DNA of 51,154 bases, taken from Escherichia phage damhaus. Under the pieces are notes generated by a model that saw nothing but the letters and a program-made list of their open reading frames with translations, had not been told where the DNA came from and ran no database searches. Shown piece after piece: positions 3,076-24,533 of this stretch (its first letter is position 1; each line of letters starts with the position of its first letter). Location of the stretch: sequence record NC_049827.1. One strand, given 5' to 3'. Made by a program: the position numbers and the translations under genes.

Positions 3076-5748
3076 ATGTCAGAACAATACGCAGGCTTGA
3101 CGCTTGGGGTTGACGTTTCTCAACTCAACAATGCTGTAAAGTCTTTGCAGCAATTCAAGAAGGCAAACGACGACGCAAAGGGGAGCGTTGAGAGTTTTGT
3201 TGATTCAGAGGTTGTTGCAAGACAAAGAGCCAAACAACTGGCTGAGGAATTGGCAAAGCAGAAGCAAGAATTTAAAGCAATTCAGTCGGCAATAGATCCG
3301 ACAGCAAGCAAAATGGATAAGTTGCGCCAGGCTGCGACACAGCTTGATGCGCTTTGGAAAAAAGGAATTGTTCCTGATGACACATTCTTTGAATTAGGAT
3401 CAATTCTTGAGACGCAGCAAAATAAACTGATCGCAACTAAAAAGGCGCTAACTGAAGAAGGCCGCGCAGCGCTTGAGGAAGCAAAAAATAAGGCAAGAGC
3501 AGAGGCTGAGGCAAGAAAGTTCATTGCGGCATTGCAGGCGCAAGCTGACGCAGCGGAAAAAACAAAATCAGAGCTTGTAGAAATGAGAGCCGCACAACTT
3601 GGAGTTAGTGCAGAGGCCGCGCCATTTATTGCAAAAATGAAGGAGCAGGAAAAACAAGCCTCAAAACTTGGCGTTTCTATGGGGCAGTACAAGCAAGCAA
3701 TGGCGCAATTGCCAATGCAGATTACTGACGTTGTTACTTCTCTTGCTTCAGGTATGCCAGTATGGATGATCGCAATCCAGCAGGGCGGGCAAATCAAGGA
3801 CTCATTTGGCGGTGTTGCTAACACGTTTAAAGCGCTAATGACATTTGTCACGCCTTTAAGTGTAGGAATTACGGCGCTGACTGGTGCTCTTGGTTATGCT
3901 GCATATAATGCATACAAAGCAAATGCACAACTGAAGGAGATCACAAAAACCGTTCAGGAGGCAACTGGTCTTTCTGGTGATTTTGCGGAGCGGATTGCAA
4001 CTGGAATCCAGGCGCTATCTGACAAGACAGGTGAGAGCGCCGATAATCTGGCAAAGGCATACATAAGCACTAAGGATGGAGCAACCGAGGCCATACAAAA
4101 ACTCGTCGATGTTGGGTTTACCTATGACGAAGCAAAGGTAAAGGTAAACGAATACAAGAATGCATCAAGTTTTGTAAGTCTCAACAATGAGATTGCTGAT
4201 CACAAAAACAAGGTTCTTGAGCTTGGCGATTCGTGGTATGAAGTCTTAAAAGCGAAGAATGATTATGCTTCACCGTCCGGCGGGCTGTTGGGGAAAGAGC
4301 TTGGTTATGTAAATCCTATGTTGCAATTTGCGAAGAACACCTATGAGGATATAGGAAAGATCGTAAAAGATGCGAATAAGGATATGGCGGAACGAGCAGC
4401 ACGCATCGACAGAGAAAATCTTTCCTTAAACAGAGTTCGAGCGGCGCAAGAGGCTTTAAACAAAGCCATAGAGGATCAGAAAAATGTAGCAAGGACAGCA
4501 GACGAAGAGTTGAAAAAACGAGCAGCCGAGAACGTGGAGTTCAGGCGAAAAGAGCTTGAAGAGGCGAAGAAGGCGCAGCAGCAAAAGGAAAAAGTTGGTG
4601 GAGTTGTAAAAGCACCAACAGAGAAGCTTGATAAGGAGCTATATGTTCTCAAAGCGCAACTTGAAACACTAAAAGAGCACAGGACTGTAAATGATGTTAT
4701 TTCACGCCAGAGGCAATCTTTGTGGAGCATTGAAAAGCAGATCCAGATCCTAGAGGAAGCGCAAAGCAAACGTAAGCTGACAAAAGCGGAACAGGCGTTA
4801 CTAAACGAGCAAAAAACAGTTCTTGCTATGGCAAAAGAAAAGGCCGAGATAGGCGATCAGATTGTTTTGCAACAGAGAAAGAACAAGCAATACCAGGAAG
4901 GGCTAAAGTTCATTCAGCAAACTTCAGATGCCATTGATGCTATGAACTTGCGACAGTCTGGAGCTACAGATCTGCAAATCCAGCGAGAGCTTGAATTGAA
5001 AAAGTTGCGAACTGATTATGTTGCTGGCGGAGGTAGTATCGACGATGAAATTTATCAGCAGATGGAAGCAAAGCTGAAGGAGTATTACGCCACTGAGGAT
5101 CAGCTAAGAAATAACTGGATTGCAGGAGCAAAAAACGCATGGGAGGTTTACGGACAAGATGCAATGGATATGTACGGAAACGTGCAAGATATTGCAAGCG
5201 AGGCGCTCAACGGTCTAACCAACCAAATGGCTACATTCCTTGCAACAGGCAAGGCAAACTTTAAGAGCTTCGCAACGTCAATCATCCAAATGATTATCCA
5301 GATGATCACGAAGATGGTTATCTTTAATGCCATATCCGGTGCGGTTGGCGGTGACACTTGGACGATTGGAAGCCTTCTTAAAAATGTTGGATTTGCAACT
5401 GGTGGATACACTGGCGACGGCGGGAAGTATGAGCCAGCAGGTGTTGTCCATAAAGGCGAGTTTGTCATGACGAAGGAGGCCACGAAGCGGATCGGAGTTG
5501 GAAATCTTTACAAAATGATGCGCGGTTATGCAAATGGCGGCGTTGTTGGCGGCACTTCATACACTGGCGGCGGAGTTTCATCTGGAGCAACAAATCTTAA
5601 TATTGGCGGGATCAACGTTGATATTAACAACGGAAGCGATCCGAAAGGGTTGGAGACTGGCGTAAAAATGATTTTCACTGATATGATTAAGCGTTCCTGT
5701 ACGCAGGGTGGGGAAGTTTACGAATTTGTTATGTCTAAGCGGGGGTGA
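3076..5748 (+). CDS. tail tape measure protein
   Basis: 890-aa ORF, long coiled-coil-like charged/Ala-rich central region, glycine-rich C-terminal part; follows chaperone frameshift pair. Confidence 0.85.
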
Positions 5749-8313: not shown

Positions 8314-11300
8314 ATGGCTGAAAATATGATAACGGGAAGTAAGGGCGGATCATCAAAACCTTATGTTCCGAAAGAGATGGAAGATAACCTGATCTCAATC
8401 AACAAAATCAAAATCCTTCTTGCCGTTTCCGATGGCGAGTGCGATCCAGATTTTACACTTCGCGATCTGTATCTTGATGATGTTCCGGTAATTGCAGACG
8501 ACGGAACTGTTAACTACAAGGGTGTGAAAGCTGAATTTCGACCTGGAACGCAGACGCAAGATTACATCCAGGGGTTTACTGACACATCAAGCGAAGTGAC
8601 GCTGGCGCGTGACATTACGACGACAAATCCTTATGTAATTTCCGTAACCAACAAAACATTATCGGCTATCAGAATCAAAATGCTAATGCCAACAGGCATT
8701 AAGCAAGAGGATAACGGCGATCTTGTCGGCGTTAAGGTTACTTATGCTGTTGATATGGCTGTTGACGGAGACTCTTACAAAGAAGTATTGCGAGACACTA
8801 TCGAAGGTAAAACGCGTTCAGGTTACGACAGAAGCCGAAGGATTGACCTTCCGGCATTTAATGATCGCGTATTACTTAGGGTTAGAAGGGTTACGGCAGA
8901 CAGCGCATCTTCTCGCGTTACTGATCTGATTAAGCTACAAAGTTACGCTGAGGTTATTGATGCAAAATTCCGTTATCCTCTGACTGGTCTTGTATACGTT
9001 GAATTTGACAGTGAGTTGTTCCCTAACCAGATCCCTAACATTTCAATCAAGAAGAAATGGAAGTTGATTAATGTTCCGAGCAATTACGATCCGGTAATGC
9101 GAGAGTATCACGGTTCATGGAATGGCACGTTCAAGAAAGCGTGGTCGAACAATCCGGCGTGGGTACTTTATGACATTATCACAAACCAGCGATACGGATT
9201 AGATCAGCGAGAGCTTGGTGTGCAGGTTGACAAATGGAGTCTTTACGAAGCGGCTCAATACTGCGATCAGAAAGTGCCGGACGGAAAAGGCGGCACAGAG
9301 CCGCGTTATCTATGCGACGTTGTGATTCAAAGTCAGATTGAGGCTTATCAGCTTATTCGTGATATTTGCTCAATCTTCCGAGGCATGAGCTTTTGGAATG
9401 GAGAGAGCTTGTCAATCGTCATTGATAAGCCGCGCGATCCGTCGTACATCTTCACAAATGACAATGTTGTTGATGGTGATTTTCAGTACACAACAGCAAG
9501 TGAAAAGAGCATGTACACGCAGTGCAACGTGACTTTCGATGACGAACAAAACATGTATCAACAGGACGTAGAGGGTGTATTCGACACAGAGGCCGCATTG
9601 CGCTTTGGATACAATCCTACAAGCATAACCGCGATCGGATGTACACGCAGGAGTGAGGCAAATCGGCGCGGTCGATGGATACTAAAAACCAACTTGCGCA
9701 GCACTACGGTAAACTTTGCTACTGGACTGGAAGGCATGATCCCATCAATAGGTGATGTGATTGCTATTGCTGACAATTTTCACAGCAGCAACCTTAAATT
9801 AAACCTATCAGGGCGCGTGATGGAAGTTTCCGGCTTGCAGGTATTCGTTCCGTTTAAGATTGATGCTAGACCAGGTGATTTCATTATCATCAACAAGCCG
9901 GACGGTAAGCCAGTTAAGCGCACAATCTCAAAGGTAAGCGGTGACGGAAAAACCATTGAGCTAAACATAGGGTTTGGGTTTGAAGTTAAGCCGGATACAG
10001 TTTTTGCAATCGACCGCACTGATATTGCATTGCAGCAATACGTTGTTACGTCTATCAGCAAAGGTGATGATGAGGATGAATTTACATACTCCATCACGGC
10101 TGTTGAATATGATCCTAACAAATACGACGAGATTGATTACGGAGTAAACATTGACGACAGGCCAACTTCAATTGTCCAGCCTGACACGATGGCAGCACCG
10201 GAAAACGTGCAAATATCCTCATACTCGCGAATTGTCCAGGGTGCAAGCGTTGAAACAATGGTTGTGTCGTGGGATAAAGTACCTTACGCATCACTGTATG
10301 AAATGCAATGGCGTAAAGGCGATGGCAACTGGCTGAATACACCACAGACCGCAAACAAAGAAATTGAGGTTGAAGGTATTTATTCAGGAAACTACCAGGT
10401 AAGGGTGAGATCTGTTTCTGCTTCCGGTTCGACTTCGCCGTGGTCCAGAATTGTGACAGCTTCACTGACTGGTAAGGTAGGAGAGCCAGGCGCGCCAGTT
10501 AACTTAACCGCATCCGACAATGAAGTTTTTGGCATTCGTGTTAAGTGGGGGATGCCAGAAGGGAGCGGAGACACGGCATACATTGAGCTTCATCAGTCGC
10601 CGGATGGAACGGCTGAAAACTCAAGCCTGCTAACGCTGATCCCGTATCCACAATATGAATACTGGCATGGAACGCTTCCGGCTGGTCATGTTGTATGGTA
10701 TCGGATCAGGAGCGTAGACAGGATCGGCAACGTTTCCGGTTGGACTGATTTTGTTAGAGGTATGGCTTCAGATGATGTGGAGGCTGTTTTAGGAGATATT
10801 CTTGACAAGATTTTTGATACTGAAGCAGGTCAGGATCTGAAAGAGAACGCCATTGACAGTGCAAACAAGATAAAGGACCAGGCGCAAGCAATCATCCAGA
10901 ATGCTCTTGCTAATGATGCTGATATTAAGTGGACGCGAGTACAAAACGGAAAGAGAAAGGCTGAATATGGTCACGCTCTTGAGCTTATAGCCACAGAGAC
11001 TGAGGCACGAGTTACGCAGATTGAAGAATTGAGGGCGTCAATAGACGAGGATATTGTTTCAAGCATAAAGACAGTGCAGGAGGCTATCGCCACAGAATCT
11101 GAAACGCGAGCAACTCAAATAAACGCTTTGGATTCAAAATTCACAACTGAAATTGACGGCGTAAAACGCGATACAGCAGCAAGCATTAATCAGGTGAATC
11201 AAACAATTGCCAACGAATCTGAAGCGCGAGCGCAGGCCGTTAACGCTCTTGATGCGAAGTTCACAAAGGAGATCGAAGATTTAAACGGAGTTATTAAGAC

Positions 11301-11892
11301 TGAGGTTGAGGCTAACATCTCTGAAGTGAAACAGGCTATCGCTAACGAGACAGAAGCAAGGGTGCAGGCTGACCAGGCGTTAACAGCTAAGTTTGGAGAC
11401 GTTGAATCTGCATTAACTCAAAAACTTGATTCATGGGCTAGTGTGTCGTCTGTTGGAGCTAAATACTCAATGAAATTGGGGTTAACATACAACGGTCAAC
11501 AGTACAGCGCAGGAATGGTAATGCAGCTTTCGCAGAGTTCATCCGGCCTTATCTCGCAGATTTTGTTTGATGCGAACAGGTTCGCCATCATGACAAGTTC
11601 GACTGGCGGGGTGTATACGCTGCCTTTCGTGGTGGAAAATAACCAGGTATTCATTAACAGCCTGTTAGTGAAAAACGGTTCAATCACCAATGCGATGATC
11701 GGTAATTATATTCAGTCGAATAACTTTGTTGCCAACTCGACGGGGTGGAGGCTGGATAAAAACGGCAGATTTGAGAACTACGGTTCGACTTCTGGAGAAG
11801 GGGCCATGAAGTTGACCAATGAAACAATAAGTGTGCGAGACGCAAACGGGCGCTTGCGTGTTCAGATTGGTAGGCTTACTGGTACGTGGTAA
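8314..11892 (+). CDS. central tail fiber / host specificity protein (lambda J-like)
   Basis: 1192-aa ORF after I-like gene; fibronectin-III-like segment; C-terminal tandem repeats of about 33 aa. Confidence 0.85.
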   Translation: MAENMITGSKGGSSKPYVPKEMEDNLISINKIKILLAVSDGECDPDFTLRDLYLDDVPVIADDGTVNYKGVKAEFRPGTQTQDYIQGFTDTSSEVTLARDITTTNPYVISVTNKTLSAIRIKMLMPTGIKQEDNGDLVGVKVTYAVDMAVDGDSYKEVLRDTIEGKTRSGYDRSRRIDLPAFNDRVLLRVRRVTADSASSRVTDLIKLQSYAEVIDAKFRYPLTGLVYVEFDSELFPNQIPNISIKKKWKLINVPSNYDPVMREYHGSWNGTFKKAWSNNPAWVLYDIITNQRYGLDQRELGVQVDKWSLYEAAQYCDQKVPDGKGGTEPRYLCDVVIQSQIEAYQLIRDICSIFRGMSFWNGESLSIVIDKPRDPSYIFTNDNVVDGDFQYTTASEKSMYTQCNVTFDDEQNMYQQDVEGVFDTEAALRFGYNPTSITAIGCTRRSEANRRGRWILKTNLRSTTVNFATGLEGMIPSIGDVIAIADNFHSSNLKLNLSGRVMEVSGLQVFVPFKIDARPGDFIIINKPDGKPVKRTISKVSGDGKTIELNIGFGFEVKPDTVFAIDRTDIALQQYVVTSISKGDDEDEFTYSITAVEYDPNKYDEIDYGVNIDDRPTSIVQPDTMAAPENVQISSYSRIVQGASVETMVVSWDKVPYASLYEMQWRKGDGNWLNTPQTANKEIEVEGIYSGNYQVRVRSVSASGSTSPWSRIVTASLTGKVGEPGAPVNLTASDNEVFGIRVKWGMPEGSGDTAYIELHQSPDGTAENSSLLTLIPYPQYEYWHGTLPAGHVVWYRIRSVDRIGNVSGWTDFVRGMASDDVEAVLGDILDKIFDTEAGQDLKENAIDSANKIKDQAQAIIQNALANDADIKWTRVQNGKRKAEYGHALELIATETEARVTQIEELRASIDEDIVSSIKTVQEAIATESETRATQINALDSKFTTEIDGVKRDTAASINQVNQTIANESEARAQAVNALDAKFTKEIEDLNGVIKTEVEANISEVKQAIANETEARVQADQALTAKFGDVESALTQKLDSWASVSSVGAKYSMKLGLTYNGQQYSAGMVMQLSQSSSGLISQILFDANRFAIMTSSTGGVYTLPFVVENNQVFINSLLVKNGSITNAMIGNYIQSNNFVANSTGWRLDKNGRFENYGSTSGEGAMKLTNETISVRDANGRLRVQIGRLTGTW

Positions 11893-16268: not shown

Positions 16269-16291
16269 AAAGGGGCATTACGCCCCTTTTT
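16269..16291. terminator. bidirectional terminator
   Basis: AAAGGGGC-ATTA-CGCCCCTTTTT between convergent SSB and minus-strand genes. Confidence 0.6.
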
Positions 16292-16535
16292 CACTTTCAG
16301 CCATCCCAAGCACGGCAATCACCTTAACAGCAATTCTCTTTGCAAGTTCAGTTTGATGAGCGTTAAGTTTTCCAGTGGTCATTATTGACAACATTCCGCT
16401 CATACTTCCAAGCCCGTTAAGATCTGACATTGCAGATTTCATTATTGATATTGGTGAATGACCATCATCAGCTATTGTGTGCGCTCTCTCTGACAGGTCT
16501 TTAACTACCTGATCAATTCCTTCACTTTTCGTCAT
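16278..16535 (-). CDS. hypothetical protein
   Basis: 85-aa ORF; its 3' end overlaps the terminator hairpin, so the true extent is uncertain. Confidence 0.4.
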   Translation of the reverse strand: MTKSEGIDQVVKDLSERAHTIADDGHSPISIMKSAMSDLNGLGSMSGMLSIMTTGKLNAHQTELAKRIAVKVIAVLGMAESEKGA

Positions 16536-17013
16536 TTGCTTTTCCTTCAGGAGTTGATTGCTGTTCTGGCATTACAGGCCACGGGCTAATTGATTCCCTT
16601 TCTGCTACTGGTTTTTCAGGTTCAATACCTAAAAACTTTCCTACAAACTCACCAACAAAATTTGAGCTATCGCTTACATAAACATGCATCCTGTCTAGAT
16701 CTGCAACCGTAACGCTATTTGGTGCGATCATGATCCTCTGTTGGTGAAAACCGATATACATCACATTAGCCGGACGCTCAATAGTTCCCATATTTGGCGC
16801 AATTACGCCCATTATCCAACAATAATGAATGTTGCCATCAAGCGGCTCACATCCAGCGTTAAGCCAGTTTACTTTCTGGTGTGGGAATGCCATTGATGAA
16901 TCAGTAGCATCACGCCGCAACGACCATTTAACGCCTCCAATCTCAATGATTTGTTTTGGCCTCATTCCGTTGAATTGAGTCACGCCAGCGCCATTTTGAT
17001 TAATGTTTTGCAT
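16522..17013 (-). CDS. hypothetical protein
   Basis: 163-aa ORF with AAGGTGA RBS. Confidence 0.6.
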   Translation of the reverse strand: MQNINQNGAGVTQFNGMRPKQIIEIGGVKWSLRRDATDSSMAFPHQKVNWLNAGCEPLDGNIHYCWIMGVIAPNMGTIERPANVMYIGFHQQRIMIAPNSVTVADLDRMHVYVSDSSNFVGEFVGKFLGIEPEKPVAERESISPWPVMPEQQSTPEGKANDEK

Positions 17014-17027
17014 ATCGGTTCACCTTG

Positions 17028-17351
17028 TTACATTGATTTCATTTTACGCAATGCGCAGATACAAGCGGCAGCAAGATCGGTTAATTCTTTCTCAATGCCA
17101 TGATGCGATCCGTCTGCCTTTTCTGTCATTAGCTCTTTGTATTCCATTTCTACAATCGACATTAAACCGCCTGGCTTGTCAATGTGCGCGTCCCAGGTCT
17201 TAGGATAGTGCTTAGTTCTTTCAATAACACTTCCCATAACTGCATCATGTTCATGATCTCGATCATAATCTCTATCATGGCCATTTCCTTCAATTACTAC
17301 TCGCGGCAAATGCACGCGCGGTAAATGATAGCCAGCGACAAGAATTTTCAT
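17028..17351 (-). CDS. hypothetical protein, possible MazG-like NTP pyrophosphohydrolase
   Basis: 107 aa with AAGGGGA RBS; weak E-x-x-E...D resemblance to MazG. Confidence 0.45.
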   Translation of the reverse strand: MKILVAGYHLPRVHLPRVVIEGNGHDRDYDRDHEHDAVMGSVIERTKHYPKTWDAHIDKPGGLMSIVEMEYKELMTEKADGSHHGIEKELTDLAAACICALRKMKSM

Positions 17352-17364
17352 GAGTATATCCCCT

Positions 17365-17391
17365 TATAAAAAAGCGCCCCGAAAGGCGCTT
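17365..17391 (-). terminator. rho-independent terminator (minus strand)
   Basis: AAGCGCC-CCGAAA-GGCGCTT hairpin followed by a T-run on the minus strand. Confidence 0.6.
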
Positions 17392-17397
17392 GATTTA

Positions 17398-18102
17398 TTA
17401 GCAACCGCAACAGCCAGTTGGCGGAGTCTGCGGAGTAGGCAACTTGAAGTTTACCAATTGCTCTACCTGGTTGATTTTGCAATTCAGTGAGGCGGTCTGG
17501 TTTGCCTGAGATAGAGCAAAACGCGCTTCCTGCAACTGAGCTTTCATATCGCAAATCAAAACAGCCTGAGAATCAGCAAACTGTTGGCGCATCAGATCTC
17601 GCGTTGCATTGCCTTGTCGCTCAATATTCAGGTTTGTCTCACAGCAACATCTCTCCGCTGCAATCTGTGCCTGATAGGAACGCTCAAGAGCATTAACATC
17701 AGCAGCATTAATCGCAGCAACTGTTTGGTTAGTACCGCTAACAATCGCGGTATTCAGTCCGGCGAAACCTTGCACCGATGCAAGCAGGTTTTGCGTATTC
17801 TGGCTGGTAATGCCGTTAAAGGTTGATGCGGCGGAGCGCTCAACGGTAAGGTTTGTGGAGTTTTGGCCTTGCAGAGTTTGCAGACCCAGGTTGTTTACGC
17901 CTGTCTGGATGTTATTAATACCATCAAGAACAGCGTTAGCACCGACAGCAACAGCAGCACCATCACCACCATAACCACCACGACCATTAAATCCGTTACC
18001 AAACCATGACCCAATCAGGCCACCAACAGCACCGCCAAGACCAGCCGCGCCAGCTTCGCCACCAAAACCACCACCAGTAGGGAGTAAAGTCATATCTGAC
18101 AT
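17398..18102 (-). CDS. glycine-rich / Cys-cluster protein of unknown function
   Basis: 234 aa with AGAGGAA RBS; about 40-aa Gly-rich N-terminus, Q/N/T-rich middle, CCC and CCGC clusters. Confidence 0.65.
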   Translation of the reverse strand: MSDMTLLPTGGGFGGEAGAAGLGGAVGGLIGSWFGNGFNGRGGYGGDGAAVAVGANAVLDGINNIQTGVNNLGLQTLQGQNSTNLTVERSAASTFNGITSQNTQNLLASVQGFAGLNTAIVSGTNQTVAAINAADVNALERSYQAQIAAERCCCETNLNIERQGNATRDLMRQQFADSQAVLICDMKAQLQEARFALSQANQTASLNCKINQVEQLVNFKLPTPQTPPTGCCGC

Positions 18103-18234
18103 AGTAAATTCCTCTTTGACGTTAAAAAATTAAAAAAGTTTGCAACATTTATGTTACAACAAAGAGTATGCGCCTAACTGTCAGGAATAGATATAAAACA
18201 TTTGTAAGCGATATGTAAGCAAATGGCATAAAGA

Positions 18235-18262
18235 CGAAAAAAAGCGCAGCCGGAGCCGCGCT
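18235..18262 (-). terminator. terminator-like hairpin after tail fiber gene
   Basis: GC-rich hairpin followed by a U-run on the minus strand. Confidence 0.45.
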
Positions 18263-18268
18263 TAGTGA

Positions 18269-20431
18269 TTAAAGATTGTTATTTAAAGATGAAACAATGG
18301 CTTTCAACTCTTCAATTTCACTTTCAAGTTTAGAGATCCTTTCATCGCTTTCTCTGCAAACCTGCACAAGCAAGCCAGTTAAAGCCGAGTAATCAACTGC
18401 AAGATACCTTTCCTCGCCAAGAACGCGATCCCCATCAGTTGACGGGCCAGGTAATTCCTCATAATTAAATCCACCGCTTATTGCCTCCGGCAATGCTTCC
18501 ATTACCTCTTGTGCAATAACACCAGCGTAAGGCATACCATTTGATTTGAGTGTGTAGGTGTAACCATTAATCTTGCGCAGCGATTCAGTAGCGTTCTCAA
18601 TCTTCTGAATGTTATCTTTCAGAGTCCCATCTGAAACTTGAGTAAGAGTCGTACACTCAATGTTTCCGTTCATCTTCATCGTTCTTGATCCATCCTTGTT
18701 TTCCTGCACATAGTAGAAATAGCCATCAGGAACGCCCCATTCAATAACAGTTGGTCGATCAGCGCTACCCCATAAACGCATCGCCGCATCTTTTGCCGCA
18801 GACTTAACGTTGTGTAATCTGTAAGCCCTACCGCCATTAATCAATGAGATAACAGAGCCTTTAGAATCAATATATCCGACACCTCCCTTTGAATTTAATT
18901 CAACAGTACCATCTGCTTTCAAAGATAAGTTGTTACCTCCGCCACCGTCATTGTAAAAAGAAGCACCATTGTTACCAGTAATCCTGAATCCGTTACCACT
19001 AATTTCACCACCAAAAGAAACGTTTCCGTCTGGAGTGAGTGACATGCATCTTTTGATTAACTCTGAATTGTTTCTATAAGAATAGATCGCGTAATTCGGG
19101 CCATAAAAGCCAGCCCTAAAACCAGGTTGACCGTCAGCGAATAGGTAAACAGTCCAGCAACCACCACTAGATTCATCCGACGCACGTTGAATTTTTACCG
19201 CGTCTTGACTTCCTTTGAATAATTGAGAGCCAACAAAAGTGTTTGAAACATTTAGACCAGGAACATCAAGATTCTTTCTTGCTTCAGGAGCATTAAGAGC
19301 ACCAGTTCCTCCGCGAGCAACAGAAAGAGCAACCCATCCATCAGTATCATAAACGCCCCAACCAACACCGCGATCTTTCAATGAAAAGTAAGTGTTTTTA
19401 TCTGGGCATCTTACTATTGTTTCAGTGCTGTCTTGTTCAAAGCGATCAAGGCTTAAATTCTGTTTTGATTGTACAACATCAACCACGTCTGAAAGGTTCG
19501 CATCTTTGCGCATCATGTTTGTTGCATCCAACTGTTTTGCAAGTTCAGCGGCGCGATCAGCTTCATTTTTTGCAGTAGTCGCAGAAACAGCGGCGGCAGT
19601 TGCAGAAACAGCGGCGGCAGTTTTCGACGCATCAGCGGATTGCGCTGATTGTGCGGCCTGAGTCTTTGACGTGTTAGCGGCTGTTTCGCTCGCCTTTGCG
19701 TTTGTCTCGCTTGCCTTAGAATTAGTCTCGCTTGTCTTTGCGGCTGTTGCAGATGCGGCGGCGGATGTCTTGCTTGCCATTGCTGCATTCTCTGACGCTT
19801 TCGCGTTTGTTTCGCTGGTTTTCGCGGCTGCCTGGCTTGTCTTTGCCGCAGCCTCTGACGATTTGGCGTTTGTTTCACTGGTCTTTGCGGCGGCTTGTGA
19901 TGCATCGGAGGCGATCTGGCTTGCTCTTGCTGAATCCTGACTTGCCTTTGCAGCATTCTTGAATTGTTCCGCGTCATTTCTTGCATTAACAGCATTTGTT
20001 TCGCTTGTCTTTGCTGCGGAAGCGCTTTGCTTTGCTGATTCAGCGCCTTGCTTGACTTGATTTACAAGATCCTTCAATCCTTCAAGATCAAAGTCTCTAA
20101 AAAATTCAAGTGCATCCGCGATCTCTGTTTCTTTGCTTTGATAGTAACGCAATGTTTCAGCTACATCTTGAGCAAGACCATCAACAGTTATTGAGTCATG
20201 AAGTAAGATCGCGTAATTTGAACGGGTAACTACCGCGCCACCAGTTGTAATTGCACGAATGCTTGTATCGTTAATAACTTCAGTTATCACGGCAATCTGC
20301 AACGGCTGAGTTAAAAATACAATAGTTGCGCCAGGGCGAATGAGCGTTAGTTGTTCTCGCCATTTTGTGTCGTATCCAGTGATATAACCTTGAGCGTCCA
20401 TTGACGCTTGTCCAGTTCTGTAAATTGCCAT
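18269..20431 (-). CDS. lateral tail fiber protein with C-terminal intramolecular chaperone (peptidase S74-like)
   Basis: Start moved to Met34 with GGGAGA RBS; A/S/T-rich repeats [13 protein letters not shown]; C-terminal chaperone-like region ending in a coiled coil. Confidence 0.8.
19550..19990. repeat. imperfect tandem repeats (about 39 bp) inside tail fiber gene
   Basis: Reiterated GCTTGTCTTTGCGGC-like units encoding [13 protein letters not shown]-type repeats. Confidence 0.6.
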
Positions 20432-20488
20432 GCGTTTTCTCCCATGTTGCATGTTAATGTCAATGCAGATAATAGCATTTGATAAGGT

Positions 20489-20511
20489 AAAAAAAAACCC
20501 CGCAATGCGGG
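20489..20511 (-). terminator. rho-independent terminator (minus strand) after primase
   Basis: CCCCGC-ATT-GCGGGG hairpin followed by a long U-run on the minus strand. Confidence 0.65.
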
Positions 20512-20530
20512 GTAAAAGTAGCAGTGACAT

Positions 20531-21463
20531 TTAGAGAAGAGATTCAGGTTTGTAAACCTTCCTCTCTATCCCTTGCCTGTAATTATCATTAATCGGCATC
20601 ATAATTTCAAGTCCTCTTTCCTCGGCAGCAATGATCGCGTCACGATCTGTGCTCTTACAGACAACTCGCATTCTTCTGTTGCCTTTATACCTGTAAGCTA
20701 CAATCTCAATGTTAGTTGCATCAAAGCAGGCCCAAACCTCCTGACCAGTTGCAAGGTGAATATGTTGCGCATCAATCCAGTCAACGCAAAGATAGATCGT
20801 CTTATCTGTGCTTCCTGTTCTCACAACCGACCCGCGCGTGTATTCCTTTGCGAGAAAAGACTGTTTACCTTCTTCATCAATGAAAAGCACATTGCACATT
20901 TCATCATCAATATCATCGGAATGTACCAGGTAACATGGTAACGCGTGAATGTATCGACCATCTTTAACGCCGCATTCATAATGGCCATCTTCAGGCGGGT
21001 ATATCCCTTCATAGGTGCTTAACGGCGTGCGATCAAATTTTAGTGTTTTTGACATAACGCGCTCGCAGCATTCATGGCTTGCCTGTTTCCCAAACGAATA
21101 ACCAGAATCACGAGATACTCGCTTATTTGCCTTGATCCTATAGTCCTGCGGAACTTTTCCAAGAAAGCGGCCCAAAATATTGATCACTTCGCTGTAAGGT
21201 TCTCCGGTTATCTTCATGATCCAACCAATTCCAGTATCGTTCCCGCACACGTTGCAGATAGCGCCGCCGTCGCCTTTTTTATCTCCAAGTTTATCCGTCC
21301 ATCTGAAGCGATCCTTTCCGCCGCAGTGGGGGCAAGATTGATGCTTGCCGTTAAAAACTTCATTTGGAAGACCGCAAATACTTTGTAGCGCCTCACGCCA
21401 TAATCCCTGCATATATGGGAGAACATCTTCCTTTTGATAAACCATAAAGTTTTCGTTGTTCAT
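20531..21463 (-). CDS. DNA primase (zinc-binding)
   Basis: Start moved to Met35 (GAGGTG RBS); CPHCGGKDRFRW zinc-ribbon motif near the N-terminus. Confidence 0.6.
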   Translation of the reverse strand: MNNENFMVYQKEDVLPYMQGLWREALQSICGLPNEVFNGKHQSCPHCGGKDRFRWTDKLGDKKGDGGAICNVCGNDTGIGWIMKITGEPYSEVINILGRFLGKVPQDYRIKANKRVSRDSGYSFGKQASHECCERVMSKTLKFDRTPLSTYEGIYPPEDGHYECGVKDGRYIHALPCYLVHSDDIDDEMCNVLFIDEEGKQSFLAKEYTRGSVVRTGSTDKTIYLCVDWIDAQHIHLATGQEVWACFDATNIEIVAYRYKGNRRMRVVCKSTDRDAIIAAEERGLEIMMPINDNYRQGIERKVYKPESLL

Positions 21464-21518
21464 ATGCACCTCAAACAAAAAAGCCTGACAGATGATAACA
21501 TCATGCCAGGCATTGTTT

Positions 21519-21992
21519 TTAGCAATTAGTGCTTTCAGGTTTATACAGGAATCCGCCAGGTTCATAATCTGACATTCTTACCACTCGCAACATTTCACGC
21601 TTATCACATCTCTTTGTGAGCGGTTTGCCATTGGAATCAAATCGCAGGTCTGGACGACAAAATGATGCGCGATAACCTTGACAGCCATACTTTTTATAAT
21701 CATTGTGCACCTTTTGAGCGCCAGCGGCTGAAATCATACCGCGAACGCGCCACTGATTTACAGTTTGCTGGCTAACGTTAAGACGTTTTGCCATTGCTGA
21801 TACACTTCCGTAATACTCAATAAGGATGTCAAGGCGCGCTTTTAGTCCGGCGCGAACTTCATCTTTTAAAACATAGTATCCTGTAGGGCGCTTGCGCTTT
21901 TTCTTATCTTTACCCCGTCGAGTTCCGTTGTTGCCATTAATTGTGCGCTTGTCAATCTTGCCAGTTGATACGGCGATCCGCTGTTCTTTCAT
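21519..21992 (-). CDS. HTH-domain DNA-binding protein (putative transcriptional regulator)
   Basis: 157 aa; predicted helix-turn-helix SVSAMAKRLNVSQQTVNQW; very basic N-terminus; divergent from helicase gene. Confidence 0.55.
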   Translation of the reverse strand: MKEQRIAVSTGKIDKRTINGNNGTRRGKDKKKRKRPTGYYVLKDEVRAGLKARLDILIEYYGSVSAMAKRLNVSQQTVNQWRVRGMISAAGAQKVHNDYKKYGCQGYRASFCRPDLRFDSNGKPLTKRCDKREMLRVVRMSDYEPGGFLYKPESTNC

Positions 21993-24127: not shown

Positions 24128-24533
24128 TAAAGGCGATTATCTGGAGTTTTACGAAAGAGATCCGACAGATACGCTAAAAGAGGAATCTCACCAGATCGGG
24201 GCGTTTCAATGGTTAACTTATGCTCATCCTGAATTACTGGCATGGCATACGAAAAACGAGGGCGACAAGGGGATCGCCACCGCAATGATGGATCAGCAAG
24301 CTGGGCTTGTTAAGGGCGTAAGTGATTTTATCATCCTGATTGGATTAAAAGGTCGTTACCCGTTCGCGGCAATTGAGATGAAGCGCGTCAATAAGTCCGG
24401 CAAGGGTAAGGCTTCACCAGTCAGCAAGGACCAAAAAGCCTTCTTGCGTCGTGTGCGTGAGCTTGGCGGATTCGCTGCCGTAACATACGGATATAAGCAA
24501 TTCATGATCGCTGTAGAATACATGATGAAATAG
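24114..24533 (+). CDS. VRR-NUC-like PD-(D/E)xK nuclease
   Basis: 139 aa with D...E-x-K pattern (GVSDFIIL...AIEMK). Confidence 0.55.
   Translation: MAMTDKGDYLEFYERDPTDTLKEESHQIGAFQWLTYAHPELLAWHTKNEGDKGIATAMMDQQAGLVKGVSDFIILIGLKGRYPFAAIEMKRVNKSGKGKASPVSKDQKAFLRRVRELGGFAAVTYGYKQFMIAVEYMMK

Follow-up and report, generated by a model that had tools for sequence, protein, structure and literature searches.

The minus-strand gene at 18269..20431 of Escherichia phage damhaus is best explained as a whole, with a probability of about 0.85, as the lateral (side) tail fibre (LTF) gene of a Hanrivervirus-like siphovirus of the T1 family. The window that we analysed, the whole 51,154-nucleotide stretch of record NC_049827.1, is that of a Hanrivervirus-like member of the Drexlerviridae, and the fibre gene occupies the known LTF locus of this family. 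What is new is the allele: the kind of protein and its place in the genome are already known for the family, and both the mosaicism of the locus and the coiled-coil/IMC architecture have been published in the BASEL studies of 2021 and 2025 (PMC8594841, PMC11990801).

The protein, 720 aa plus stop in the ORF list and its translation, matches PHROG tail-fibre families (best E = 2.6e-92). It lies apart from the tail module, with recombination/SSB genes on one side and primase/helicase genes on the other, in a slot syntenic with the annotated 'lateral tail fiber protein' of the BASEL Hanriverviruses JakobBernoulli and KarlJaspers, and it carries the attachment domain that the whole family shares at the far N-terminus. 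In fact, conservation of Drexlerviridae LTFs is limited to the far N-terminus, and their genes sit at a site between recombination and primase/helicase genes (PMC8594841, S1C Fig). These fibres are presumed to bind O-antigen, a role that according to BASEL 'has never been directly demonstrated' (PMC8594841). A 78-kDa SDS-PAGE band in TLS is weak evidence for LTF on the virions of T1-like phages, and we would expect the damhaus fibre to be mounted on the virion too.

The neighbours are the primase gene at 20531-21565 (PF08273, phrog_510), which adjoins the LTF gene, and, on the other side, a Gly-rich gene of 234 aa at 17398-18102 (phrog_9288, a family with no function assigned there). Among the genes of the main tail module, tape measure lies at 3076-5748 and the central fibre gene J at 8314-11892, so that the LTF gene lies about 6.4 kb beyond J. 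The GC content of the gene bears no foreign signature, except that its repeats are rich in Ala codons. Thus, the first-pass annotation, which had described a minus-strand 720-aa fibre gene between primase and Gly-rich gene, about 6 kb from the tail module, is borne out by ORF, profile and synteny searches, by the N-terminal match to solved Webervirus tail proteins and by the measured distance; its terminators and S74 chaperone also stand, and only its repeat period of 39 bp has to be given up.

The start codon needed a decision, since the open reading frame extends over 18269-20530. We place the start at the ATG at 20431, which is backed by the relatives and by a Shine-Dalgarno sequence, GGGAGA, read directly 6 nt upstream (20438..20443, minus strand). 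The in-frame ATG at 20530 would give a 753-aa protein; it abuts the primase stop codon, and we rejected this longer form because it reads across the hairpin of the primase terminator and because relatives and PDB homologues begin with MAIYR/MALYR. Another ORF of 160 aa in an alternative frame (19513-19995) was dismissed as a by-product of the repeats.

From N- to C-terminus the protein is composed of an anchor, a heptad stalk, a distal tip and a chaperone. PDB homology, AF2 prediction and conservation together define the virion-anchor domain and neck helix as aa 1-126 (20054..20431, minus strand). In a PDB sequence search, aa 1-171 align with the N-terminus of Depo32 (7VYV, 7VZ3) and DpK2 (7LZJ) at E = 1.8e-55, and in Depo32 this N-terminus consists of an anchor domain plus a helical bundle (PMC10581125). 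In the AF2 model a beta-barrel spans aa 3-76 (pLDDT 74-93) and leads into a helix; with this model Foldseek returned generic small beta-barrels only (E > 0.01). The anchor DNA is 94-98% identical to that of other Hanriverviruses, and aa 1-126/146 are near-identical to aaroes and JakobBernoulli.

The anchor is followed by 25 heptads (K-x-S-x-x-x-A) at aa 127-301 (19529..20053, minus strand), which period, AF2 and indels lead us to regard as a predicted alpha-helical coiled-coil stalk. Position 3 is Ser in 20 of the 25 units and position 7 is Ala in 22. Autocorrelation of the amino-acid sequence has its peaks at lag 7 and its multiples (14, 21 and onwards), with a value of 0.458 at lag 7 against 0.171 +/- 0.026 after shuffling, a value reached in none of 5000 shuffles (0/5000). 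The 13-aa (about 39 bp) period suggested at first is not recovered: lag 13 stays at background (0.136), DNA autocorrelation is 0.486 at lag 21 versus 0.28 at lag 39, and TRF finds 21- and 63-bp periods. The true period is 21 bp (7 aa), and the 13-letter unit proposed earlier turns out to be two adjoining heptads read out of register. Repeats do occupy the span 19550-19990 given at the time, with limits that have to be moved slightly outwards. AF2 predicts a continuous helix over aa 120-200 (pLDDT 87-94). The stalk also varies in length, as had been anticipated: compared with near-identical alleles, it is shorter in-frame by exactly 13 heptads in the aaroes LTF and by 15 whole heptads in the LTF of P0001/L004, and a junction falls on the shared AGCGAAACA.

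Beyond the stalk, aa 302-599 (18635..19528, minus strand) make up an allele-specific distal shaft and presumed receptor-binding region, delimited by tblastn and AF2. In tblastn with this region no phage record exceeds 61% identity, identity of 98% is found only to P0001, and the tip region (aa 330-545) had no relatives in IMG/VR. In the AF2 monomer of aa 321-720, the structure prediction advised by the first-pass annotation, the distal part is beta-rich; with a mean pLDDT of 62, and values >= 90 only around aa 550-590, its confidence is too low to define the fold of the tip, and we discarded it for this purpose. In Foldseek, profile and sequence searches aa 557-592 resemble a shaft motif of T4 gp34. 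The receptor is most probably O-antigen or another surface glycan, by analogy with relatives. Given how rare the tip allele is among phage records and in IMG/VR, it could bind a glycan beyond those that characterised coliphages cover so far.

The C-terminus, aa 600-720 (18269..18634, minus strand), is a Peptidase_S74 intramolecular chaperone, assigned by Pfam and alignment. PF13884 hits aa 600-650 with E = 4.5e-13 and 49.7 bits, where the gathering cut-off is 22, and the S-D-x-x-x-K dyad appears as S600-D-G-T-L-K605 at the start of the domain, aligned to SDRRIK of S16 gp37. Across an alignment of 40 sequences, D601 and K605 never vary, and at least 90% keep S600. The region aligns with the S16 gp37 chaperone (6F45) and with the MYRF ICA domain (7DC3), and the AF2 monomer has a C-terminal beta-hairpin at aa 651-679 (low pLDDT, ~58-68), after which aa 681-719 are helical (pLDDT 81-92); hairpin and helix would agree with the 'tentacle' and the terminal helical coiled coil of this chaperone family. 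Pfam score and conserved dyad thus fit the self-cleaving chaperone noted earlier, and the predicted scissile bond is Val599|Ser600; T5 pb1 is cleaved at Thr1263|Ser1264, with Lys1269 (PMC4690869).

The locus is mosaic. We mapped cassette boundaries against three Hanriverviruses: the flanks of the LTF are 94-98% identical between damhaus and these phages, the distal halves of the gene are unrelated, and identity resumes at 18271-18284, that is, at the stop codon. The comparison among related phages called for by the first-pass annotation therefore supports horizontal exchange, with distal halves swapped between conserved flanks. One exchange even crosses the genus boundary. By blastn, 18023..19699 (minus strand) is shared at 98.3% identity with L004, a contig that has a backbone 98.2% identical to that of the Warwickvirus FritzSarasin and flanks only 75-81% identical to damhaus; the 5' junction lies inside a heptad unit. 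Judged by sequence, 18023-19699 is a recently exchanged Hanrivervirus-to-Warwickvirus cassette.

On both sides, and on its own strand, the gene is flanked by terminator-like hairpins, as had been reported. The intrinsic terminator after the primase gene (20497..20513, minus strand; 7 bp stem + T9, -12.5 kcal/mol, z = -3.2) has a stem conserved across Hanrivervirus and Warwickvirus, where only the loop differs. The other begins 5 nt past the LTF stop codon (18242..18263, minus strand; 9 bp stem + T7, -16.4 kcal/mol, z = -4.3), within the conserved 3' flank of the exchanged cassette. Between primase terminator and start codon lies an intergenic block, AAATGCTATTATCTGCATTG (20461..20480, minus strand), whose sequence does not differ among 4 Hanriverviruses and 2 Warwickviruses; neighbouring coding DNA is 76-81% identical between the genera. 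It contains TGcTATTAT (20477-20469), an extended -10-like candidate for the promoter of the fibre gene. A sigma-70 consensus scan listed no promoter in the 100-nt gap upstream of the LTF, TGcTATTAT included; its sole match (10/12) falls within the 3' end of primase at 20610-20582.

Could the protein be a tailspike enzyme that depolymerises or deacetylates a polysaccharide, like the Webervirus proteins with which it shares its anchor? The homology of aa 1-171 to the capsule depolymerases Depo32 and DpK2 and the beta-rich distal part would agree with such an enzyme, but the homology ends at aa ~171, and the ~300 residues between stalk and chaperone compare with a depolymerase beta-helix of ~370 residues (aa 272-642; PMC10581125). 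Moreover, Pfam and NCBIfam searches gave no catalytic domain, and Foldseek points to the T4 gp34 fibre shaft rather than to a beta-helix enzyme, which makes the tailspike improbable. That the S74 domain is kept in the mature fibre, either as a structural cap that does not cleave or within the binding tip, is very improbable: S74-type domains do differ in the final location of the serine (PMC4690869), yet both catalytic residues are present here and conserved across 40 homologues, and all characterised members with an intact dyad (T5 pb1 and the K1F endosialidase) auto-cleave (PMC4690869). A lateral fibre with a cleavable chaperone is the reading that we retain.

The 13- and 15-heptad differences, the junction within a heptad and the longest array among 28 relatives raise the thought that stalk length might be selected for the depth of O-antigen or capsule. 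Tentatively, the Ser/Ala stalk could be a dedicated module for in-register recombination and length tuning, its length fitted to the host O-antigen/capsule independently of the specificity of the tip. The heptad array may instead be merely a compositionally simple stalk, with incidental indels and junctions and no promotion of exchange by the repeats. This we consider doubtful too, even though the cases examined are just two indels and one inter-genus transfer, and the exchange boundaries with JakobBernoulli and KarlJaspers, at 20052 and 20124, fall in the anchor domain, outside the repeats. Against mere coincidence, each of the two indels amounts to an exact multiple of 21 bp and ends within homologous units, a shared 18-nt unit is overlapped by the L004 junction, and the damhaus allele has 23 consecutive small-residue heptads where 27 related proteins, by the same criterion, have at most 11.

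We envision the lateral fibre as follows. Its gene would form a transcription module of its own in the leftward block of replication genes, with a terminator, an extended -10-like element and a Shine-Dalgarno sequence upstream and a terminator downstream. Three chains would trimerise, nucleated and registered from the C-terminal end by the S74 domain acting as an intramolecular chaperone. After correct folding, Ser600, with Lys605 as its activator, would cut Val599|Ser600 and release the chaperone, so that the mature fibre, as we propose, lacks it. The conserved beta-barrel anchor (aa 1 to ~115) would dock the fibre onto the tail, the 25 Ser/Ala-core heptads would form a long alpha-helical coiled coil, and the beta-rich distal region would carry the receptor-binding surface and mediate a reversible first contact. 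In evolution, the conserved anchor and heptad array may serve as a 5' homology arm, with a 3' arm starting at the stop codon/terminator, so that distal halves are replaced via homologous recombination between the arms; out-of-register pairing of heptad units may shift stalk length in whole heptads.

The closest known counterpart is Gp36 of JakobBernoulli (Bas07, Hanrivervirus). It holds the same slot between primase and Gly-rich gene, with flanks 94-96% identical, a near-identical N-terminal ~126 aa and the same order of anchor, coiled coil, distal tip and C-terminal intramolecular chaperone. The distal region, however, lacks DNA-level similarity, the whole proteins are 34% identical, and the regular stalk of 25 Ser/Ala heptads is a feature of damhaus; the receptor of Gp36, the O16 O-antigen, is not transferable to the damhaus allele. 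The Klebsiella Webervirus proteins Depo32 (GH-K3) and DpK2, also from Drexlerviridae, share a homologous anchor and helical bundle, whereas distally they carry a beta-helix depolymerase plus CBM, without S74, in place of the fibre tip and S74 of damhaus.

The L-shaped tail fibre pb1 of T5 (4UW7/4UW8), a lateral fibre for reversible glycan binding, likewise has a C-terminal S74 chaperone with a Ser...Lys dyad five residues apart, which leaves by autoproteolysis, and T5-like phages match aa ~500-716 at ~53% identity in tblastn. pb1 differs in its size (1396 aa) and its N-terminal attachment. It was not retrieved from the PDB by phmmer, profile hmmsearch or Foldseek, where the distal model was of low confidence, and its bullet-shaped receptor-binding domain (pb1 residues 970-1263) likewise gave no match in sequence, profile or Foldseek searches, the last with that same low-confidence query. 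The chaperones of Salmonella phage S16 gp37 and the K1F endosialidase (3GW6) belong to the same family as that of damhaus: the damhaus SDGTLK lines up with SDRRIK, and they have the motifs GYTY and AGxIAQEV in common. Their fibre bodies are unrelated to the damhaus LTF, and S16 requires a separate adhesin, gp38. We considered whether the Gly-rich gene might encode an adhesin of the gp38 kind or a chaperone specific to the allele and set this aside: it is 94-96% conserved beside unrelated tips and missing from L004, which has the same tip. Being neither linked to the allele nor present in a phage with the same tip, it is an improbable candidate for a gp38-type cap.

The literature on relatives suggests that the LTF may act as a host-range locus. 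The passage of T1-like phages through O-antigen barriers would be decided by lateral fibres, and their alleles therefore matter for the prediction and engineering of host range. The damhaus locus offers a clean natural example of cassette movement and stalk-length change, with one transfer between genera caught at 98%.

The predicted lateral tail fibre (LTF) gene lies on the minus strand, in an open reading frame spanning 18269-20530. Translation from the ATG at 20431, which is preceded by the Shine-Dalgarno sequence GGGAGA (20443-20438, minus strand), gives a protein of 720 aa with the N-terminus MAIYRTGQ, and the start position is the same in relatives and in the solved homologues 7VYV and 7LZJ. 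The in-frame ATG at 20530 was rejected because it directly adjoins the stop codon of the primase gene, and a reading frame begun there would run across a terminator hairpin. Reading frame, translation and neighbour families agree with the placement made in the first-pass annotation, between the primase gene upstream (20531-21565; PF08273, phrog_510) and a gene for a 234-aa Gly-rich protein downstream (17398-18102, minus strand; phrog_9288, function unknown). The separation from the main tail module, put at about 6 kb, is ~6.4 kb, counted from the central fibre J gene (8314-11892), with the tape-measure gene at 3076-5748; the genes for Exonuclease VIII, Erf and SSB lie in between. Intrinsic-terminator hairpins do flank the gene on its own strand, at 20513-20497 (7-bp stem, T9 tail, -12.5 kcal/mol, z = -3.2) and at 18263-18242 (9-bp stem, T7 tail, -16.4 kcal/mol, z = -4.3).

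Flanking DNA shows 94-98% identity to genomes of Hanrivervirus (Drexlerviridae, Tempevirinae), including aaroes, JakobBernoulli, KarlJaspers, grams and herni, in which the order regulator, primase, fibre, Gly-rich gene, three small genes and SSB is constant; in BASEL, the syntenic gene carries the annotation 'lateral tail fiber protein'. We mapped the cassette edges, in window coordinates, from DNA identity to three of these phages. Upstream identity stops at 20052 for JakobBernoulli, 19991 for aaroes (plus 19551-19744) and 20124 for KarlJaspers, and downstream identity restarts at 18271, 18284 and 18284, respectively. What varies is therefore the gene body, which begins where the conserved N-terminal anchor ends, or inside the stalk formed by the heptad array, and extends to the stop codon; the downstream terminator is part of the conserved arm. 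In and beyond the variable region, full-length alignments give ~34% protein identity to JakobBernoulli and aaroes. The top tblastn match to aa 331-720 among 50,697 phage records was Henu8 (61%), and a scan of IMG/VR with the distal tip region gave no matches.

The neighbouring Gly-rich protein, named 'putative sugar-binding protein' in BASEL, is 94-96% conserved next to unrelated fibre tips and is thus not an allele-specific fibre partner. It has no Pfam match. Its N-terminus is Gly-zipper-like, and cysteines are clustered close to the C-terminus and at its very end (CCCE..., ...GCCGC). A weak similarity of aa 23-77 to the influenza HA2 fusion peptide (E = 0.05) may be compositional. The gene is split into two ORFs in JakobBernoulli.

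In a large collection, a single protein, P0001 (615 aa), shares the last 400 aa at 98% identity. It is encoded on L004, a 51-kb contig with a Warwickvirus backbone, which matches the Warwickvirus FritzSarasin at 98.2% up to fibre codon 115 and again from the SSB gene on. Against the window, L004 is 98.3% identical over 19699-18023, with flanks at 75-81%. This block extends past the terminator and the intergenic region into the first ~80 nt of the Gly-rich gene, a gene that Warwickviruses otherwise lack. What follows in L004 is a ~91% identical piece of window 16465-16264 (the 38 aa left from the 5' end of the Hanrivervirus Gly-rich gene and this piece lie at L004 12017-12133 and 12106-12306), and an equivalent of 16466-18022 is missing. 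The simplest reading of these alignments is that a Warwickvirus recently acquired the segment from a Hanrivervirus-type donor, with internal deletion of the 16466-18022 equivalent; the Gly-rich remnant, the ~91% piece and the gap together form a footprint of the direction in which the fibre cassette moved. The mosaicism and horizontal exchange proposed for this locus are visible both in the divergence of the proteins against near-identical flanks and in the cassette on a Warwickvirus backbone. Twenty records named 'Campylobacter phage' also match window 17300-21700 (e.g. A16a, MG065636, 50 kb, unannotated, at 90.6% identity); they are probably T1-like contaminants or mislabelled.

The repeats within the gene had been read as units of about 39 bp, and here the first-pass annotation was wrong: the actual period is 7 aa. 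Amino-acid autocorrelation peaks at multiples of 7 only. Over aa 127-301, identity is 0.458 at lag 7 against 0.171 +/- 0.026 after shuffling (0 of 5000 shuffles as high) and stays at background (0.136) at lag 13; DNA lags of 21 and 39 give 0.486 and 0.28, and TRF reports periods of 21 and 63 bp. Laid out in register, aa 127-301 comprise 25 heptads of the form K-x-S-x-x-x-A, with Ser at position 3 in 20 and Ala at position 7 in 22, a 3/4 spacing that has the look of a small-residue coiled-coil core. AlphaFold2 models the array, as a monomer, as an unbroken helix (pLDDT 87-94 over aa 120-200); the hairpin turn at aa 209-218 would be an effect of modelling a normally trimeric chain as a monomer. 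A 160-aa Q/R/P-rich ORF in another frame of the array (19513-19995, minus strand) was set aside as an artefact of the repeats rather than a gene.

Stalk length does vary, as had been expected. P0001 is shorter by exactly 15 heptads (105 aa, aa 143-247), with the deletion junction on AGCGAAACA, common to both units. The protein of aaroes, the closest backbone relative, shows no difference up to aa 146, then misses 91 aa (13 heptads); near-identity resumes and lasts to aa ~293, beyond which the two diverge. Since their end-points differ, the two gaps are independent events. By a strict small-residue criterion, 23 heptads are consecutive here, compared with 2-11 in 27 related proteins. The repeats may actively drive exchange or may simply be tolerated; two of the four mapped 5' boundaries fall in the anchor, outside the repeats.

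Could the protein be an enzymatic tailspike? Residues 1-171 match the N-terminus of the Webervirus depolymerases Depo32 (7VYV/7VZ3) and DpK2 (7LZJ) with E = 1.8e-55; in Depo32, the equivalent region is described as comprising an anchor domain and a helical bundle, and it cannot be seen in the cryo-EM map (PMC10581125). A tailspike is nevertheless unlikely: depolymerase homology stops at aa ~171, searches of Pfam and NCBIfam gave no catalytic domain, and there is room for about 300 residues only. The N-terminal model shows a small beta-barrel (aa 3-76) followed by helices, and Foldseek retrieved generic beta-barrels only. Structure prediction of the region upstream of the chaperone, suggested at first pass, gave a beta-rich fold for aa 302-599 but a poor monomer model (mean pLDDT 62), with high confidence around aa 550-590 alone. 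A 36-residue stretch there (aa 557-592) resembles a T4 gp34 shaft motif (profile E-value 8.6e-9; Foldseek probability 1.0 over ~100 residues). Searches with the fibre protein did not retrieve the T5 pb1 bullet domain, the tip-region model being of low confidence.

The C-terminal S74-like intramolecular chaperone recognised earlier is supported by a match of aa 600-720 to Peptidase_S74 (PF13884; 49.7 bits, cut-off 22). The domain starts with S600-D-G-T-L-K605. In phage S16 gp37 (6F45) the aligned residues are SDRRIK, and the equivalent position in the MYRF ICA domain (7DC3) aligns too. T5 pb1 cleaves itself at Thr1263|Ser1264; Lys1269 is the activating base, S1264A stops processing and the serine departs with the chaperone (PMC4690869). 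By analogy, we predict cleavage at Val599|Ser600, which would yield a 599-aa mature fibre and a freed 121-aa chaperone. An S74 domain that is kept and does not cleave is unlikely, because the Ser/Lys dyad is intact and conserved: D601 and K605 never vary across 40 aligned homologues, and at least 90% of these keep S600. The modelled beta-hairpin (aa 651-679, low confidence) and the helix at the end of the chain (aa 681-719) are consistent with the 'tentacle plus coiled coil' described for the T5 pb1 chaperone.

A scan listed no consensus sigma-70 promoter in the 100-nt gap upstream of the fibre gene. In this gap, four Hanriverviruses and two Warwickviruses all carry AAATGCTATTATCTGCATTG (20480-20461) unchanged, whereas adjacent coding DNA differs by ~20% between the genera. 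The unchanged block contains the extended -10-like TGcTATTAT just past the T-run of the terminator, and we infer that it is a candidate promoter of the fibre gene's own. With such a promoter, the gene would be a module bounded by terminators, like the 'transcriptons' proposed for T1 (quoted in PMC11447400). A sigma-70-like site in the 3' end of primase (TTGAAA-17-GATAAT, 10/12 matches, 20582-20610, minus strand), ~70 nt upstream of the primase terminator, may be due to chance, promoter-like matches in the scan not being enriched over shuffles; its hexamers are nearly conserved in Warwickviruses (TTGACA ... GATAAT), confounded by coding constraint.

With at most 3 mismatches allowed, the two strands together carry 16 copies of the 20-nt element AATAGCACTTTTTGTTAAAA (0.02 expected), at 2376, 13197, 22005, 24529, 25549, 28795, 30962, 31638, 33916, 34792, 36132, 36596, 37601, 38610, 41312 and 49788. 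This element corresponds to the 21-nt repeat found between genes in T1-like phages, the role of which is acknowledged to be an open question (PMC11447400). A GC-rich stretch follows the copies at 24528, 25548, 36131 and 41311, with a hairpin in three of the four; past it, cATAAT stands ~22 nt after TTGTTA (TAAAGT in the 41311 copy). The leftward block holding the fibre gene (16278-21992) has no copy; in Warwickviruses, however, a reverse-orientation copy stands immediately ahead of the fibre gene's RBS.

The kind of gene is known. In Drexlerviridae, the LTF locus sits between conserved recombination and primase/helicase genes, conservation in the main LTF gene is confined to the far 5' end, O-antigen binding by LTFs is probable and 'never directly demonstrated', and JakobBernoulli uses O16 (BASEL 2021, PMC8594841). 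JakobBernoulli Gp36 combines an elongated N-terminal coiled coil with a T5-like tip and a C-terminal chaperone (BASEL 2025, PMC11990801), and papers on KanT1 and TLS describe the same architecture in general terms, with weak evidence for the fibre on the virion. Given these descriptions, the first-pass annotation was a correct reading of a known gene kind, its interpretation supported and its observations sound apart from the repeat period. Specific to this fibre gene are the rarity of its tip allele, the unusual length of its heptad stalk and a well-resolved transfer between genera.
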